Shown here piece after piece: positions 49,178-55,889 of a stretch of DNA of 64,000 nucleotides. The notes under the pieces are model-generated. The model had not been told where the DNA came from, did no database searches, and worked only from the letters and a program-made list of their open reading frames with translations. The stretch spans positions 87,355-151,354 of the forward strand of contig JAEOTZ010000072.1 in assembly GCA_016839585.1 (NCBI GenBank). The letters are read 5' to 3'. Within the stretch, counting starts at the first letter, position 1, and every line of letters begins with the position of its first letter. The position numbers were made by a program, and so were the translations under genes. The stretch comes from Promethearchaeota archaeon. Its GTDB lineage: Archaea > Asgardarchaeota > Lokiarchaeia > Sigyniarchaeales > SOKP01.

Positions 49178-49360
49178 ATTTATTCATTTTTCTTAAAAAT
49201 ATATTATTAAACTTAAAAATGGGTTGATTAATAAAGATTTTAATTTATTCTTATGAGATATTTTATTAAAATCTATTTATATAGAATAATTTCTATTATT
49301 TATATAAAATCATCCCTAAATAAAAGTAAAAGTCAATTATTAAATAAATGGTGTAGAATG

Positions 49361-49744
49361 ATGGGATTTGATGACGAATTTGATGAGGATTTCGATGAAG
49401 AATTAGAATTTGATGAAGATTTAGAAGAATTAAGTTCTAAAACTCCAGACGATAAAGTTGAATCTAAAACTCCTGTTGTTAAAACTATTCCTGAAGGGAA
49501 AAAGATTTCAGTATATTTTATGTCTACTATTGGTCCAGGTGAGAAAAAACAAAAATTACTTATAAATTCAGGAAATCATGTTGGAGATATTAAAGAAACT
49601 GTAGCAAATTTATTTGGTTTAGATCCTGTTGATTTTCATTTATCTTCAGGTGGAGTAACTATGGATGAGAGTTTTCCTTTAAAAGATTATAATGTGAATG
49701 ATGGAGATGACATACTTTTAATTCCTGCAAGTACTGCTGGTTAA
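49361..49744 (+). CDS. Ubiquitin-like modifier, copy 1 (acidic N-tail, C-terminal ...STAG)
   Basis: Beta-grasp pattern VGDIKETV..LFGL....FHLSSGG..MDE..PLKDYNVNDGDDILL; terminal Gly. The upstream ORF-track extension is AT-rich promoter-like DNA; GGTG SD before ATG 49358/49361. Confidence 0.85.
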   Translation: MGFDDEFDEDFDEELEFDEDLEELSSKTPDDKVESKTPVVKTIPEGKKISVYFMSTIGPGEKKQKLLINSGNHVGDIKETVANLFGLDPVDFHLSSGGVTMDESFPLKDYNVNDGDDILLIPASTAG

Positions 49745-49788: not shown

Positions 49789-50583
49789 TTAATCTTTTTC
49801 TTTTCTTGATGGGATTAGAGCAATTTCATCATCATCATCTATATCATAGTCTTTTATTTGTGAGTTTTCGTGCAATAATATACCTCCAGAGGATAACAGA
49901 AAATCTTTTAAATTGTAATTAAATAATATCCCTACTCTTTCTTTCACTACACTTATTAACTCAATAGTGTTAACAATAATTATTTTCGTTTTTTCGCCCG
50001 GCTCAACTAATGATCTTATATAAATTCGGAGCTGGTCTTCCATTTTAATAGGATTCATTGGTGGTATATATATTATCTCCTCATCAGTTTTATCCTTGCT
50101 TTTCAACATATTTTCTATTAAACTTTTCCTCTCATTTGGGTCAAAATATAACATTTCCCTAATAAACACTATTTTATCCATTTTTGATAATCCTAAAAGG
50201 TTTATTTTATCTAATTCTTCCTGATTAAAAACTGAAAATATATATTTGTCTATTACAGGAATATTTTCATGTGATTCATTTGATGTAATGTATTCTTCTA
50301 TTGAAGGCATTGTATCGATATAATTTTCAATAATATCTACTATTTTCTTTTTAATCGGCTTTTGTTTAGCAAAATATTTCTTTTCTCTTATCTTTCTGTC
50401 TTGACTATCTTTGGAGTGTAAGACAGTATAGATAGTACTTGTGGATAATACTGCGACACTACCAATAGTCAAGAAGAGAAATAAAGGAATACTTTCTATC
50501 TGTAATAGGAAAAAAAACATATAGATTAAAAGAAAAATACTATAAAGAGTTATAACACTTAAAATTCTGTATTTGTTTCTCAT
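49789..50583 (-). CDS. 2-TM membrane protein with C-terminal ubiquitin-like domain lacking terminal Gly
   Basis: Two N-terminal TM; C-terminal PGEK...VKERV..LF...FLLSSGG...ENSQIKDY...LIPSRKEKD aligns to both Ubls. Confidence 0.8.
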   Translation of the reverse strand: MRNKYRILSVITLYSIFLLIYMFFFLLQIESIPLFLFLTIGSVAVLSTSTIYTVLHSKDSQDRKIREKKYFAKQKPIKKKIVDIIENYIDTMPSIEEYITSNESHENIPVIDKYIFSVFNQEELDKINLLGLSKMDKIVFIREMLYFDPNERKSLIENMLKSKDKTDEEIIYIPPMNPIKMEDQLRIYIRSLVEPGEKTKIIIVNTIELISVVKERVGILFNYNLKDFLLSSGGILLHENSQIKDYDIDDDDEIALIPSRKEKD

Positions 50584-50668: not shown

Positions 50669-51340
50669 TCATACACCTTGAATTGATTTTTTAACTTTAG
50701 AATATTTCTCTGAGTCTAATTTAAATCCATTTCTATTTTTAATTTTTTCAATTTTAATTAATTTCAGGTTTTTTAAAATATCGATATATTTCTTAATAGT
50801 ACTGTGATTTTTTTTTAAGCTATTTGCTATATCTGTAATTTTTAATGCTTTATTTTCTTTCTTCATAAAATTAATTAATTTTTGAACGATTTCTTTATTT
50901 AAATAAAAGTAAAACTCATCAAGTTCAGAATTTGACTCAAATTTGAAGAAAATTCTATGATTATTGATTTTTTTTGATCGAATAAATTGAAATTTTTCTA
51001 GACATGATAAATGCCATAAAGCTTGATTACTTCCGATATTTAGAGCTTTCATTATTCCATTAATATTTGAAGGTTTTCTTTTAATATAATTAAATATCTC
51101 ATTCCTTTTTGGATGCTCAACGATATTATTTTTCATTAATCTAGTTCCCGGGATAATAACTCGCCTTTTAATTAAATCCTTTAAGATTAATTCTATTCTA
51201 TTCTCATTTATATTAGGATTGTACCTTACTCTATTATTTATAAATGATATGATCTCTCTTATTGAAAAGAAAGTTTTTTTTGTTAAATACTCTCTTACTA
51301 ATTCAAGAACAACAGATTCTGCATTATCCAGAAAACTCAT
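50669..51340 (-). CDS. Multi-winged-helix (ArsR-like) transcriptional regulator
   Basis: HPKRNEIFNYI...WHLSCLEK and ITDIANSLKKNHSTIKKYIDILKNLKLI. Confidence 0.78.
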   Translation of the reverse strand: MSFLDNAESVVLELVREYLTKKTFFSIREIISFINNRVRYNPNINENRIELILKDLIKRRVIIPGTRLMKNNIVEHPKRNEIFNYIKRKPSNINGIMKALNIGSNQALWHLSCLEKFQFIRSKKINNHRIFFKFESNSELDEFYFYLNKEIVQKLINFMKKENKALKITDIANSLKKNHSTIKKYIDILKNLKLIKIEKIKNRNGFKLDSEKYSKVKKSIQGV

Positions 51341-51614: not shown

Positions 51615-51947
51615 ATGAGTTTTGATGAATTTGATGAAGATTTGGTTGGGGAAGAACCAGTAAAATCTAAAACTCCCGCAACTAAAACCCCTTCAGCAGG
51701 AAAGAAATTAACTCTATATTTCATGTCAACTATTGGTCCTGGTGAAAAGAAGGAGAAATTAACTGTGAATGATGCTAATCATGTAAGTGATATTAAGCAA
51801 ACATTAGGGAATTTATTTGGACTTGACCCTAATGATTTTCATATATCATCTGGCGGAGTTACAATGGATGAAAATAGTCAATTAAAAGACTATAGTGTAA
51901 GTGATGGAGACGATATTCTTTTGATCCCTGCGAGTACTGCTGGGTAA
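51615..51947 (+). CDS. Ubiquitin-like modifier, copy 2 (C-terminal ...STAG)
   Basis: 63/82 identity to copy 1 over the core by hand alignment; first gene of the E1-E2-JAMM-RING run. Confidence 0.88.
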   Translation: MSFDEFDEDLVGEEPVKSKTPATKTPSAGKKLTLYFMSTIGPGEKKEKLTVNDANHVSDIKQTLGNLFGLDPNDFHISSGGVTMDENSQLKDYSVSDGDDILLIPASTAG

Positions 51948-51979
51948 ACTTATATAATTTTCTTCATAAATTATAATAT

Positions 51980-52008
51980 AAGGGCTTAAAGCCCTTTATT
52001 TTTTTTTT
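51980..52008 (+). terminator. Hairpin plus T-tract between Ubl2 and E1
   Basis: AAGGGCT-TAA-AGCCCTT followed by TATTTTTTTTTT. Confidence 0.55.
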
Positions 52009-52027
52009 ATTTTTTAAATATATAATA

Positions 52028-53263
52028 ATGGTGATTATATTGGATAAGGATTCAGACTTTTTTACAAAAGAATTATCAGTGGAAGAGAGAGATTTATACG
52101 ATCGTCAATTCCGTCTTGAAGGCTGGTCCCAGAAATTAGTAAAAAACACCAGAGTATTAATAGTAGGAGTTGGAGGTTTAGGATGTGAAATTGCTAAAAA
52201 CTTAGCCATGCTTGGTGTTGGTCACTTAGATCTCGTTGATTTAGATATTATTGAACATTCTAATTTGAACCGTCAAATACTTTTTACAGGAGCGAAGATA
52301 GGAGAGCCTAAAGTAGTGGTTGCTGCTAGAAAACTAACTGAAATTAATCCTAATGTTATTATTAAGGGATATCATACTTCTCTAGAAAGGTTAAATCCTG
52401 CTGTATATCAAGCTGCTGATGTTGTTATAGGAGGTCTTGATTCTATGAATGCACGACTTAACTTAAATGCACAATGCATAAGGTTTAAAAAGCCATTAGT
52501 AGATGGAGGTGTATCTGGTTATTATGGTCACGTATACACTATCTTCCCTTATCAAAATGCTTGTTATGAGTGCAATCCATTACCAGTAGTAGAGGGTGAT
52601 GAGATGGCTGCTTGTACAGTGGTTGGGGTCCCCAGAAAAAGGATTCATTGCCTTTTTAAAGGAGATATGGCATTTAAAGAAAACTTTGACAGAGATCCTA
52701 ATCCAAAAGATATAAATGATATTAAGTTTATTCAAAAGGTCGCAAATGAATTGGTGAATAAACATAATTTCTTACCTGAATACACAGAAGATGACATTGT
52801 GAAAATTATTGATAGACATGATCCTGGTATAATAACTATAAATGCAATTATTTCTGCTTTACAATCACATGAAGCAATAAAAATTCTACATTGGAAAGAA
52901 GGTCATAAAGGATTAGGTGAACCTATTAAAAGTTATGTTATCTTTAATGCAATGACAATGAAATTTTACCATATTGAGAAACATAGGAATCCAGAATGTT
53001 CTCAGTGTGGTAGAAGTGTTCGAAGAGTATCTATAAAATTAAGATCTCAATCACCTTGCATAAATATAATTAAAATATTAGAGAAAAATGGTTTTGAATT
53101 GGATCCTGATTATGAACCTGTTCTAACTTTATTAGATTTCAATGATATTAAAATTGTAGATTTAGAAAAGAATCCAATTGAAAATGGGTTAAGAAATTAT
53201 GAATTCATAACTAGTGCTGGATTTAAAGATGGAGAGATTTTTGTAACCTTAAAATTAAAATAA
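52028..53263 (+). CDS. Ubl-activating enzyme E1 (ThiF domain; UBA3/UBA2-like catalytic Cys region)
   Basis: LYDRQ, VGVGGLGCE, D.IEHSNLNRQ, CYEC...ACTVVGVPR..IHC, CSQC; ~85-aa C-terminal extension. Confidence 0.92.
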   Translation: MVIILDKDSDFFTKELSVEERDLYDRQFRLEGWSQKLVKNTRVLIVGVGGLGCEIAKNLAMLGVGHLDLVDLDIIEHSNLNRQILFTGAKIGEPKVVVAARKLTEINPNVIIKGYHTSLERLNPAVYQAADVVIGGLDSMNARLNLNAQCIRFKKPLVDGGVSGYYGHVYTIFPYQNACYECNPLPVVEGDEMAACTVVGVPRKRIHCLFKGDMAFKENFDRDPNPKDINDIKFIQKVANELVNKHNFLPEYTEDDIVKIIDRHDPGIITINAIISALQSHEAIKILHWKEGHKGLGEPIKSYVIFNAMTMKFYHIEKHRNPECSQCGRSVRRVSIKLRSQSPCINIIKILEKNGFELDPDYEPVLTLLDFNDIKIVDLEKNPIENGLRNYEFITSAGFKDGEIFVTLKLK

Positions 53264-53339
53264 AAATTTAATCAAAAAATATTTTCTATAAAAATTTAAA
53301 ATAAAAAATTAATTAATATGAAAAAAAAGGGTTGAGAAT

Positions 53340-53867
53340 ATGAGTATAAGAAGTAGTAGAATTTCCCAAGATTTTGGGGGATTAAAAAAAATGTTAAAAG
53401 AAGGATCTATTGTTCAATTAAAACCTTTTAATCCTAAAAAGAAGAGTATTGATCACTTAGCCATCTCTTTTAGAGGACCTAAAGGGACAGTATATTCAGG
53501 TGGTCTTTTTAGATTGGAAATGAAATTTCCTGCTCAATATCCTAAACAACCTCCTTTTGTAAGAATGCATACTCCAATTTGGCATCCAAATTTTTGGCCA
53601 AAACCGAGTGAATATAAAGGACAGAGAAATATTTGTTTAGCATTAGTAGATCCCTCTTTAGTTGGTAAAAAAGGTGGATGGAGTCCATCAAAAACCGCTG
53701 TCACGATTGTTCAAGCAATAATTGCTATGTTAAACACCCGTGGTAAGTACGTAAATCCAACAGATGTTTTTAATAAAAAAGCAGCATTAGAAATGATTAA
53801 AAATCCTAAATTTTTCGATAAAAAAGTCAAAAACTTAGTTAAAAAGTATGCTAATGAGAAATGGTGA
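53340..53867 (+). CDS. Ubiquitin-conjugating enzyme E2 (UBC fold)
   Basis: GPKGTVYSGGLF, FPAQYPKQPP, TPIWHPN...ICL...WSPS. Confidence 0.93.
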   Translation: MSIRSSRISQDFGGLKKMLKEGSIVQLKPFNPKKKSIDHLAISFRGPKGTVYSGGLFRLEMKFPAQYPKQPPFVRMHTPIWHPNFWPKPSEYKGQRNICLALVDPSLVGKKGGWSPSKTAVTIVQAIIAMLNTRGKYVNPTDVFNKKAALEMIKNPKFFDKKVKNLVKKYANEKW

Positions 53868-54690
53868 AAATTTAATGAATTATGATAATAATAATAATAA
53901 TAGTAATTTAATCAAAGAAGCAATAAAACATAAAATTAAGGAAAAAATTAAAAAAGAACTGCTTGAAGAGATATATACTGAATTAAAATCAGAAGAAGAA
54001 TTGATAGATGAAATAACTTCTGAATTTAGTCAAAATAAGCCTTCAGATCATACCAAAAAAATTAACATTACACATGAGAATTCATCAAAAGAATCAGAAA
54101 TAGCATATATTAAACATAATGACACTGAAGCCAAGATAACTATAACAGTTAAAGCTATTCTTAAGATAGCAAGCCATTCTTTAAAATATGCTCACTCTAA
54201 GATCCCAAGGGAGGATTGGGTTGAAGTGATAGGGTTACTTGCCGGCAATTTAGATAATTCTGGGCGTATTCTTCATATAGAAGATGCTTATCCAATGGGT
54301 CATGGTACAGCTGTTTATGCTGAAATTAAAGATTATAAAAATTATGTGAGAGCTTTTAAAGATATTAAGAGGAATAAATTATACATCTGTGGATGGTATC
54401 ATTCTCATCCATCTTATGGGTGTTTTATGTCTAATGAAGATATAGGAACTCAAGCTAGATATCAAAAATTATGGGATAAGGCTATTGCTCTTGTTATAGA
54501 TCCATATCAAATTGATGGTACTTCATTAGGATTTGAGATTTATCGTGCAAATATCAGAACAAAAAAATGGTTTTCTTTACCATATAATATAAAAGGGTAT
54601 TTAGATGTTCGAATGTTGCCTGAAATCTTGGCATTTATGAATCCTATTATTGAGGGGAAACCTGTTTACTTGGAATATGATGAAGATTAA
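53848..54690 (+). CDS. JAMM/MPN+ isopeptidase (Rpn11/CSN5-like)
   Basis: EVIGLLAG, GWYHSHPSYGCFMSNEDI..Q, ALVIDP; start may be 53875. Confidence 0.92.
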   Translation: MLMRNGENLMNYDNNNNNSNLIKEAIKHKIKEKIKKELLEEIYTELKSEEELIDEITSEFSQNKPSDHTKKINITHENSSKESEIAYIKHNDTEAKITITVKAILKIASHSLKYAHSKIPREDWVEVIGLLAGNLDNSGRILHIEDAYPMGHGTAVYAEIKDYKNYVRAFKDIKRNKLYICGWYHSHPSYGCFMSNEDIGTQARYQKLWDKAIALVIDPYQIDGTSLGFEIYRANIRTKKWFSLPYNIKGYLDVRMLPEILAFMNPIIEGKPVYLEYDED

Positions 54691-54719
54691 ATTCTTTAAT
54701 ATGTGGTGATTCTTAAACC

Positions 54720-55889
54720 ATGGTGAAAACTAAAACTGTTGCGATATCATTAATTATCTTTTTAATCATAGGCATAATCCATGGTGCTATTTTAGACTCA
54801 TTTAATGTATTTGTAACTTGGTTATTAATTGGTTTATGGATAATATTTACTATTAAAATTTTAGAAAATGTAAAACGTCACCGCGAATTTAATTCACCAC
54901 ACAATACTGCCTTTTTTGTCATAATCCCTTTATTTATCGGAATTTTTTACTCTATTTGGGGTTATTTTACCGGTATTCTGGCTGAAAACCTTCTAGAGGG
55001 TTCAGATCTATATTTTAGTTGGTGGAGTATCATTTTTGGATTTCCATTTGTATTATATGGCGCTCATTCTTTATATCGTTGTTTTAAGAAATATAATGTT
55101 ATTTATTTTGGAACGAAATCAATAAAAGCTAGGTTATTTGGATATATTTTAACCTTTATTGTTCTTCTTTTTATAATATTTTATTGGATTATTTTTTATA
55201 CTGTTATTGAATTCTATAATTTTCCATTAATCCCGCTTCACTTCTCTGTAGATCTTAACCTTTTATTATTATTCATAATTACAATATTGATATTAATTGT
55301 TTTTGGATTTATTAGTTCACAAAGACCATTGCCAACATTAACTCGTGATTATATAGCACAACGTACTAGGAGAATAAATTCATTAACATCTCCTACTGCA
55401 TTATCTTCGCCTAGAAGACAAAGACAAACTGTAAGTACAACAATTAGATCAACACCAACATCTAGAAATATATCTCGAACAACAAGATCAAGTACTCAAT
55501 CATCAAGAACAACACCAACTTCACATAGACAAACAAATAGAACAAGAACAACAAAAACTACCCAAACTAGAAGTGTAAAACCAACATCAAAAAGTCGAGA
55601 TCTAAATAGATATAAGCCAATAGGATCATATCTATCACAGGACGATTTTAAATGTATTTTTTGTTTTAAATTACCAAAACTTCCTGAGGATAGAGGGAGA
55701 GGGATAATCTTGTGCCCACATTGTAGATACCCAGCACATGCAGATGAATTTAAAGATTGGTTACGAACCTCAAATCTGTGTTCACGATGTAGTACCCCTA
55801 TTCCATCTACCTTTAAAAGTAATCCTAGGATAATTAGTGTAAAGGATTATTTAATTATCTATAGACATTTTTTAAGAAAAAAGAACTAG
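54720..55889 (+). CDS. Polytopic membrane protein with C-terminal RING-variant finger (putative E3 ligase)
   Basis: About 6 TM, S/T/R-rich linker, CIFC-x16-CPHC-x4-HADE..W....CSRC. Confidence 0.8.
   Translation: MVKTKTVAISLIIFLIIGIIHGAILDSFNVFVTWLLIGLWIIFTIKILENVKRHREFNSPHNTAFFVIIPLFIGIFYSIWGYFTGILAENLLEGSDLYFSWWSIIFGFPFVLYGAHSLYRCFKKYNVIYFGTKSIKARLFGYILTFIVLLFIIFYWIIFYTVIEFYNFPLIPLHFSVDLNLLLLFIITILILIVFGFISSQRPLPTLTRDYIAQRTRRINSLTSPTALSSPRRQRQTVSTTIRSTPTSRNISRTTRSSTQSSRTTPTSHRQTNRTRTTKTTQTRSVKPTSKSRDLNRYKPIGSYLSQDDFKCIFCFKLPKLPEDRGRGIILCPHCRYPAHADEFKDWLRTSNLCSRCSTPIPSTFKSNPRIISVKDYLIIYRHFLRKKN

Follow-up and report, generated by a model that had tools for sequence, protein, structure and literature searches.

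A six-helix membrane protein with a Glu-bearing RING-variant finger at the E3 position of a conserved Asgard ubiquitin-like operon

RING E3s of archaeal ubiquitin operons, prokaryotic C4HC3 RINGs and eukaryotic polytopic RING ligases are all already known. Operons with small soluble RING E3s have been found in Caldiarchaeum and in Asgard archaea, and have been reconstituted in vitro. In the srfp operons of Caldiarchaeum subterraneum (PMC5654768) and of Helarchaeia (bioRxiv 10.1101/2023.07.25.550441), the E3 is a small soluble RING-H2 protein that is encoded together with a ubiquitin-like protein (Ubl), an E1, an E2 and an Rpn11-like JAMM protease. For Caldiarchaeum, E3 activity has been shown: the RING protein encoded with Ub, E1 and E2 is needed for modification of the substrate, and depends for this on an Ile and a Trp (PMC5654768). 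The operon RING E3 of Helarchaeia has also been reported to be active (bioRxiv 10.1101/2023.07.25.550441). Loki-type Asgard archaea instead have, at the operon's E3 position, a gene for a conserved six-helix membrane protein, which we describe here. In the literature that we searched there was no description of a transmembrane RING in Lokiarchaeal ubiquitin operons, nor of Glu as a RING ligand. A polytopic RING variant with Glu at ligand 6, encoded at this place in a conserved Asgard operon, is thus undescribed in that literature, and no family model covers it.

The operon and its last gene

The window, which is the whole stretch of 64,000 nucleotides that we analysed (G+C ~30%), comes from an assembly of 3.45 Mb that is 99% complete; among public records it is nearest to Promethearchaeota (Loki-type Asgard) MAGs, with 98% identity to the best of them. 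It contains five tightly packed genes on the + strand (51615-55889) that encode a Ubl, an E1, an E2, a JAMM protease and a protein of 389 aa with transmembrane (TM) helices and a RING-like finger, which we call TM-RING. The following features were found (residue numbers are those of TM-RING).

51615-51947, + strand: Ubl (Pfam ubiquitin), gene 1 of the operon, with an acidic N-terminal tail and the end ...STAG
52028-53263, + strand: E1 of the ThiF family
53340-53867, + strand: E2 (UQ_con) with the HPN motif, Cys99 and an invariant W-S-P loop
53848-54690, + strand: JAMM/MPN (JAB, Rpn11-like) protease with an intact HxH-x7-S-x2-D motif, overlapping the end of the E2 gene by 20 nt
54705-54709, + strand: GGTGA, a Shine-Dalgarno-like motif (read directly) 10 nt 5' of the ATG, inside the 29-nt gap after the JAMM gene
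54720-55889, + strand: TM-RING gene, 389 aa (a domain of six TM helices, then the basic linker, the RING-variant finger and a C-terminal helix)
54720-55316, + strand: residues 1-199, six predicted TM helices, N-in/C-in
55317-55610, + strand: residues 200-297, predicted disordered basic linker rich in Thr/Arg/Ser, including a juxtamembrane helix (206-223)
55653-55790, + strand: residues 312-357, predicted RING finger with prokaryotic C4-H-(C/H)-C2 spacing and Glu at ligand position 6
55746-55748, + strand: codon of Glu343 at metal-ligand position 6, where the nearest canonical RINGs have His
55839-55883, + strand: residues 374-388, conserved amphipathic helix after the RING

TM-RING shares with the srfp E3s not only the company of Ubl, E1, E2 and an Rpn11-like JAMM protease, but also the logic of E2 contact, i.e. 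a hydrophobic residue after Cys1 and a Trp on the central helix (Phe314 and Trp347, equivalent to the Ile and Trp on which the Caldiarchaeum E3 depends), as well as a region of ligands 3 and 4 that departs from the eukaryotic consensus. In contrast to the small soluble srfp, however, it has 389 aa, six TM helices, a basic tether of ~90 aa and a C4-H-E-C2 finger. The operon also differs from the srfp operons, as the JAMM gene here lies inside it and the Ubl ends in Ala-Gly.

The TM-RING gene is the last gene of the operon, and is followed by a convergent gene for a type I GTP cyclohydrolase (folE2 family), which is unrelated to the operon. Two genes lie divergently upstream: 49789-50583 (- strand) encodes a protein with two TM helices and, at its C-terminus, a Ubl domain without a terminal Gly, and 50669-51340 (- strand) encodes a winged-helix (ArsR/HrcA-like) regulator.

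Seven GTDB families of the phylum supplied 18 genome regions, which we searched with the window's proteins. In every one of the 18 loci the TM-RING gene comes immediately after E2-JAMM, and 12 of them keep the whole order Ubl-E1-E2-JAMM-TM-RING; in one family Ubl-E1 lies ~2 kb off on the same strand. The loci examined keep all three parts of the protein, namely TM domain, basic linker and finger. Ubl was detected in 13 of the 18 related loci (L039-L056), and has an acidic Phe/Asp/Glu N-terminal tail followed by one or two S-K-T-P motifs. The detected Ubls end in LIP-x-STAG, thus with Ala-Gly and not Gly-Gly. The E2 retains the HPN motif, the catalytic Cys and the invariant W-S-P loop, which we take to be the RING-contacting loop 7 of UbcH5-type E2s. 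No other E3 candidate is encoded in the operon. We also noted a second copy of Ubl near the operon in seven related loci (tblastn), and in the window itself at 49253-49744.

TM-RING has 391 homologues at E≤0.01, of which the best 120 have E<1e-160. All 391 come from Asgard MAGs, and every one is named 'hypothetical protein'. A match was found in 145 of 301 sampled genomes of the phylum, including 58 of 68 from the window's own family. Given 391 homologues and a near-invariant finger, the combination of the TM domain with the finger is not a chance finding. A contig labelled 'Candidatus Nanopelagicaceae bacterium' (DATKTW010000176.1, locus L112) carries a full-length gene at 64% identity, and is probably a mis-binned Asgard contig.

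The finger, its ligands and its relation to known RINGs

The finger had been read from the letters as C312-x2-C315-x16-C332-x2-C335-x4-H340-x2-E343-x3-W347-x6-C354-x2-C357, with a Glu in place of the sixth zinc ligand and a Trp at the E2-contact position, and the protein sequence bears out each of these points. In an alignment of 109 representatives, ligands 1-5, 7 and 8 (C312, C315, C332, C335, H340, C354 and C357) are invariant and have the spacing of a cross-brace. Prokaryotic RINGs are of the C4HC3 type (review PMC11354881), and since the spacing of the finger is of this type, the ligands pair as 1-2, 3-4, 5-6 and 7-8. Position 6, where a RING has Cys or His, is occupied by Glu343, which is Glu in 97 representatives, His in 10, Cys in one and Ala in one. 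Trp347 is present in 108 of the 109, and position 314, two residues after Cys1, is Phe, Ile, Val or Leu in 107 and His in the other two, so that both E2-contact residues of a RING have their counterparts in the finger. The residue after the last Cys is Ser, Asn or Asp, and not the Arg/Lys 'linchpin', a feature of many active RINGs (PMC5654768), which many other active RINGs lack.

Glu is an unusual structural zinc ligand. The conservation of Glu343, nevertheless, fits its occupying the metal-ligand position of a predicted site 1 composed of Cys2-His-Glu. Two other assignments were considered and rejected. The His of CPHC cannot be a canonical ligand 4, as the position is Asn, Ser, Lys or Thr in most homologues, and Asp342 was dismissed as the ligand in place of Glu343 because it is Asp in only 64 of 109 representatives, whereas Glu343 does not vary likewise. 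On a quick tree of the finger built without the ligand column, the Glu/His state requires two changes. The representative with Ala at this position (P0142, PAHADAF) may reflect a sequencing error, or a lineage in which the position is dispensable.

The same genome encodes a small soluble RING paralogue of 188 aa (contig C73:4441-5004) with His at ligand 6 (AHKDHLIDW), which is the genome's best match to the finger profile after the TM-RING gene itself (E 8.8e-10); the Glu and His forms, therefore, coexist in one genome. Further finger proteins were seen outside the operon: a soluble protein of ~696 aa with a C-terminal RING-H2-like finger (contig C5:8502-10589; zf-RING_2, 27.8 bits), and proteins of ~695 aa with a similar type of finger within the regions around the operon in two related genomes (loci L043 and L050).

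The AF2 model of residues 298-389 (109 sequences; pLDDT 86.2, pTM 0.73) has two short strands and then a helix beginning at His340, and thus shows, as a prediction, the beta-beta-alpha fold of RING/U-box domains. The sequence-only reading had taken the finger for a RING variant, with a PHD finger as the outcome that would speak against it. The model and the structure searches agree with a RING: leading matches were RING/U-box domains only, and no PHD finger was among the first 50 of either search. The top Foldseek matches were all RING/U-box E3s (TRIM37, Bmi1/Ring1b, Rad18, TRIM32, RNF146, HRD1, RNF4 and EL5), with probabilities of 0.95-1.0 and E-values of only 3e-3 or weaker, as one would expect of a domain this small. 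A second search (VIA) of 48,161 chains, independent of Foldseek, gave RING/U-box domains in all of its best 50 matches (best Z 8.1). In addition, the helix of residues 374-388 aligns with the flanking helices of TRIM/Rad18/Ring1b-type RINGs.

Sequence comparison of the TM-RING protein alone with Pfam gave scores below the cut-offs of 27-29 bits (zf-RING_16 11.6-12.2, zf-RING_2 10.2, Prok-RING_1 10.3), and no NCBIfam threshold was reached. The finger shares the C-x2-C ... C-P-x-C-x4-H-x2-X spacing of Prok-RING_1 (PF14446; Burroughs, Iyer and Aravind), but differs from that family in scoring 10.3 bits against its cut-off of 29.1 and in having Glu, not Cys, as ligand 6. A profile search of 1.84 billion representative proteins returned only 115 relatives of the finger. 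About 100 of these keep H-x2-E, and the full-length ones among them have six TM helices and 360-465 aa. Small soluble proteins make up most of the dozen most distant relatives, with H-x2-H in 10 of the 11 aligned; several of this dozen pass the Pfam zf-RING_2 cut-off (28.6-44.9 bits against 27.3). One soluble relative passes Prok-RING_1, and more distant family members match that model below its threshold.

We built profiles of the close family (A2), of the Asgard small H-type RINGs (A5) and of both combined (A3). The Asgard small RINGs are the nearest sequence relatives of the finger: hhalign matched A2 to A5 with a probability of 98.8% (E 4.9e-17), and placed E343 opposite the second His of A5. 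A3, in turn, matched solved RING-H2 E3s (RNF24 at 9.4e-9 and RNF4 at 5.3e-8, and also ARK2C/RNF165, EL5, Arkadia, listerin and RNF38), as well as HRD1/synoviolin RINGs at 7e-5 to 9e-4 and, with AMFR included, up to 3e-3. In the alignment with RNF24 the ligand-6 position of the profile falls opposite Cys6. These matches of A3 to solved RINGs are driven in part by the H-type members, and A2 alone found no significant RING among solved structures, its best match being the zinc finger of IFT144 (E 0.09). The link to canonical RINGs is thus transitive, as the TM-RING protein itself is below the Pfam thresholds and A2 does not significantly match a solved RING. With this qualification, three lines of evidence from sequence and modelling place the finger in the RING superfamily. 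We noted that the stretch CPxC-x-[YF]-PA-H (finger residues 330-345) resembles the C-terminal zinc fingers of IFT144 and WDR19 (IFT-A; PDB 8bda_I and 8bbf_A), which gave the only PDB sequence matches of A2 (E 0.09-0.36, non-significant).

Membrane domain and linker

The count of six TM helices, made beforehand on the sequence, was reproduced: helices span residues 4-25, 28-53, 60-84, 101-125, 137-162 and 171-198 in a low-confidence full-length model, in agreement with the hydrophobicity profile. Among the termini and loops of the TM domain, Lys and Arg residues are found at the N-terminus (2), in the loop 47-62 (3), in the loop 119-139 (6) and at the C-terminus (5), with none in the other loops, which argues for an N-in/C-in topology, in which the finger would share the cytoplasm with E1 and E2. 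The strongly conserved cytoplasmic loops are KRHREFNSPHNT after TM2 and YRCFKKYNVIYFGTKS after TM4. Since the full-length AF2 model, made from a shallow alignment, has a pLDDT of 52, the fold of the TM domain cannot be taken from it. An ESM Atlas shape search with this model of pLDDT 52 found only its own cluster (TM-score 0.36), and the ESM Atlas feature search gave no usable relative of the TM domain. There was likewise no known family for the domain in Pfam (24 family members searched) and no match in NCBIfam, and a profile search of the PDB with an alignment of 43 TM sequences gave a best E of 0.72 (DppC). Conservation of the TM domain, however, is much above what a passive anchor needs.

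Between the TM domain and the finger, residues 200-297 form the low-complexity Ser/Thr/Arg linker that had been noticed at first sight: 24 Thr, 19 Arg and 17 Ser in 98 residues, 68% Ser/Thr/Arg/Pro, and 22 Lys and Arg against 2 Asp and Glu. Across the family the linker varies in length (about 75-135 aa) and sequence, but its composition is kept; in the related loci it has 86-135 aa and a net charge of +9 to +23. It has been suggested that the linker may bind the acidic tails of Ubl. Such binding would fit the data, both features being present, without variation, in every locus examined. A Pfam match of the linker to pneumovirus glycoprotein G (E 3e-5, under the cut-off) was dismissed, as it spans the low-complexity linker.

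Like Hrd1/synoviolin and gp78/AMFR (ERAD) and MARCH/Doa10 (RING-CH), TM-RING has a polytopic TM domain followed by a RING that would be cytoplasmic. From the likeness in architecture to Hrd1 the sequence-only reading had proposed a membrane quality-control ligase, a proposal of which the layout of polytopic TM domain plus RING survived. In the searches described above the TM domain of TM-RING matched no known family, and it has no detectable similarity to those of Hrd1/gp78-type ligases. A3 matches Hrd1-type RINGs no better than soluble RING-H2 ligases, none of the comparisons pointed to common descent or to an ERAD-like function, and what TM-RING shares with Hrd1 is the layout only. A part in quality control, which was read from the architecture alone, is thus one possible role of the TM domain among several, with sorting, regulation of transporters and self-regulation being others.

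The genome contains a second Ubl-conjugation cluster on contig C89 (35406-42913; locus L143:1404-8842), with a JAB protein of 170 aa, a ThiF E1 of 292 aa and a UQ_con E2 of 185 aa on one strand. On its flanks lie three multi-TM proteins of 355, 327 and 349 aa, each carrying at its C-terminus a C4C4 RING-like finger that ends in CWxC; a fragment of a Ras-family GTPase and a P-loop protein are also close by. Like TM-RING, these proteins combine multiple TM helices (five to eight) with a C-terminal cross-brace finger next to Ubl-conjugation genes. They differ from TM-RING, however, in the C4C4 finger ending in CWxC, in the lack of a long basic linker and in TM domains that are unrelated by tblastn. 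Taken with the operon of the window, the cluster shows that membrane-tethered fingers beside Ubl-conjugation genes recur in this organism. A third pair of E1-like and E2-like genes lies at C5:67988-74857 (locus L144), where the E2 match is split over two frames, which may be due to a frameshift or an intervening sequence.

Proposed function and alternatives

The architecture, the RING fold as a prediction, the homology to canonical RINGs, the Glu at ligand position 6 and the synteny are established by sequence comparison and modelling. On these grounds, and by analogy with the archaeal operons that have a soluble E3, we propose that TM-RING is probably the membrane-anchored RING-type E3 of the Ubl-E1-E2-JAMM operon. 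The six TM helices would fix the protein in the cytoplasmic membrane, leaving both of its ends on the inner side, and the flexible, strongly basic Ser/Thr/Arg tether of 75-135 aa would carry the cross-brace RING finger. Site 2 of the finger would be composed of four Cys (C332, C335, C354 and C357), and site 1 of Cys2-His plus Glu343 (C312, C315, H340 and E343), with Glu343 as a putative zinc ligand. Through Phe314 and Trp347 the RING would bind the Ubl-charged E2 of the operon, and may thereby promote transfer of Ubl to lysines of proteins that lie in the membrane or next to it, a mark that the JAMM protease would remove.

We predicted the complex of the E2 with the finger and two Zn. It scored 0.57, as compared with 0.00 for the best of three controls; in the calibration of this score 58 of 80 solved complexes and 2 of 110 mismatched pairs attained the mark, but at 0.60 or under only 7 of the 80 solved complexes did so, together with both passing mismatches. 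Agreement between the runs was at least 97% of contacts, and the pLDDT of the partner was at least 83. The prediction thus lends weak support to an E2-finger complex, and since RING-E2 complexes have already been solved, the score may reflect likeness to them.

Because the finger has no Arg/Lys after its last Cys, a non-canonical ligand and only a transitive homology to canonical RINGs, we kept two readings in which TM-RING does not act as a ligase. The protein may, though this is unlikely, be a non-catalytic membrane anchor or adaptor, whose finger binds the E2 (or Ubl, or JAMM) and concentrates the machinery at the membrane without activating E2~Ubl; Cue1 is a comparable anchor for Ubc7. An anchor of this kind would agree with the missing Arg/Lys, the unusual ligand 6 and the weakness of the support for the complex, and the TM domain and cytoplasmic loops, being far more conserved than a simple anchor needs, suggest that it would have other partners. 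The almost invariant E2-contact positions (the hydrophobic residue two after Cys1 and the Trp of the helix), however, speak against this reading, the linchpin is missing from many active RINGs, and the operon encodes no other E3 candidate. It is quite improbable that the finger is a degenerate RING-like scaffold, which has lost ligase function and serves for interaction or dimerisation while the real activity resides in the TM domain. Such a scaffold would resemble the zinc fingers found at the C-termini of IFT-A, alpha-COP and GATOR2 subunits. Indeed, the IFT144/WDR19 fingers share the CPxC-x-[FY]-PA motif and are the only PDB sequence matches of A2, IFT-A and GATOR2 chains are among the Foldseek matches of the finger, and the TM domain is highly conserved while matching no known family. 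Yet the E-values of the IFT144/WDR19 matches (0.09-0.36) are not significant, constraint is strong on the seven ligands, on Trp347 and on the hydrophobic residue at position 314, and in seven families the gene has a fixed place after E2-JAMM, which suggests a part in the Ubl pathway.

It is very improbable indeed that the finger is a treble-clef reader, of the PHD type or another, with a peptide or a lipid rather than the E2 as its ligand. The C-x2-C...C-x2-C-x4-H-x2-X pattern fits the C4HC3 arrangement common to PHD fingers and prokaryotic RINGs, and A3 gave weak matches to the PHD fingers of BRD1 and Jade-1 (E 0.03-0.05). With the same profile, however, RING-H2 ligases matched five or more orders of magnitude better (to ~1e-8), PHD fingers were missing from the first 50 matches of both structure searches, and the spacer between ligands 6 and 7 has 10 residues, which is shorter than the 12 or more of PHD fingers.

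For the proposed membrane-anchored E3, a further reading can be offered tentatively, and we hold it to be rather doubtful. TM-RING could be an archaeal counterpart of the eukaryotic polytopic ligases, possibly predating them, that tags membrane proteins with the Ala-Gly-ended Ubl for extraction, degradation or ESCRT-type sorting. The TM domain would then recognise substrates in the bilayer, and a weaker Cys2-His-Glu site would make the activity respond to zinc, pH or redox state.

The presence of Glu at ligand 6 throughout the family, where the nearest relatives have His, would offer a natural test case for the tolerance of RING metal sites. Ubiquitin-like tagging at the membrane underlies ERAD and endosomal sorting in eukaryotes. 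If TM-RING is active, such tagging at a membrane would already be a fixed, operon-encoded function in the closest prokaryotic relatives of eukaryotes.
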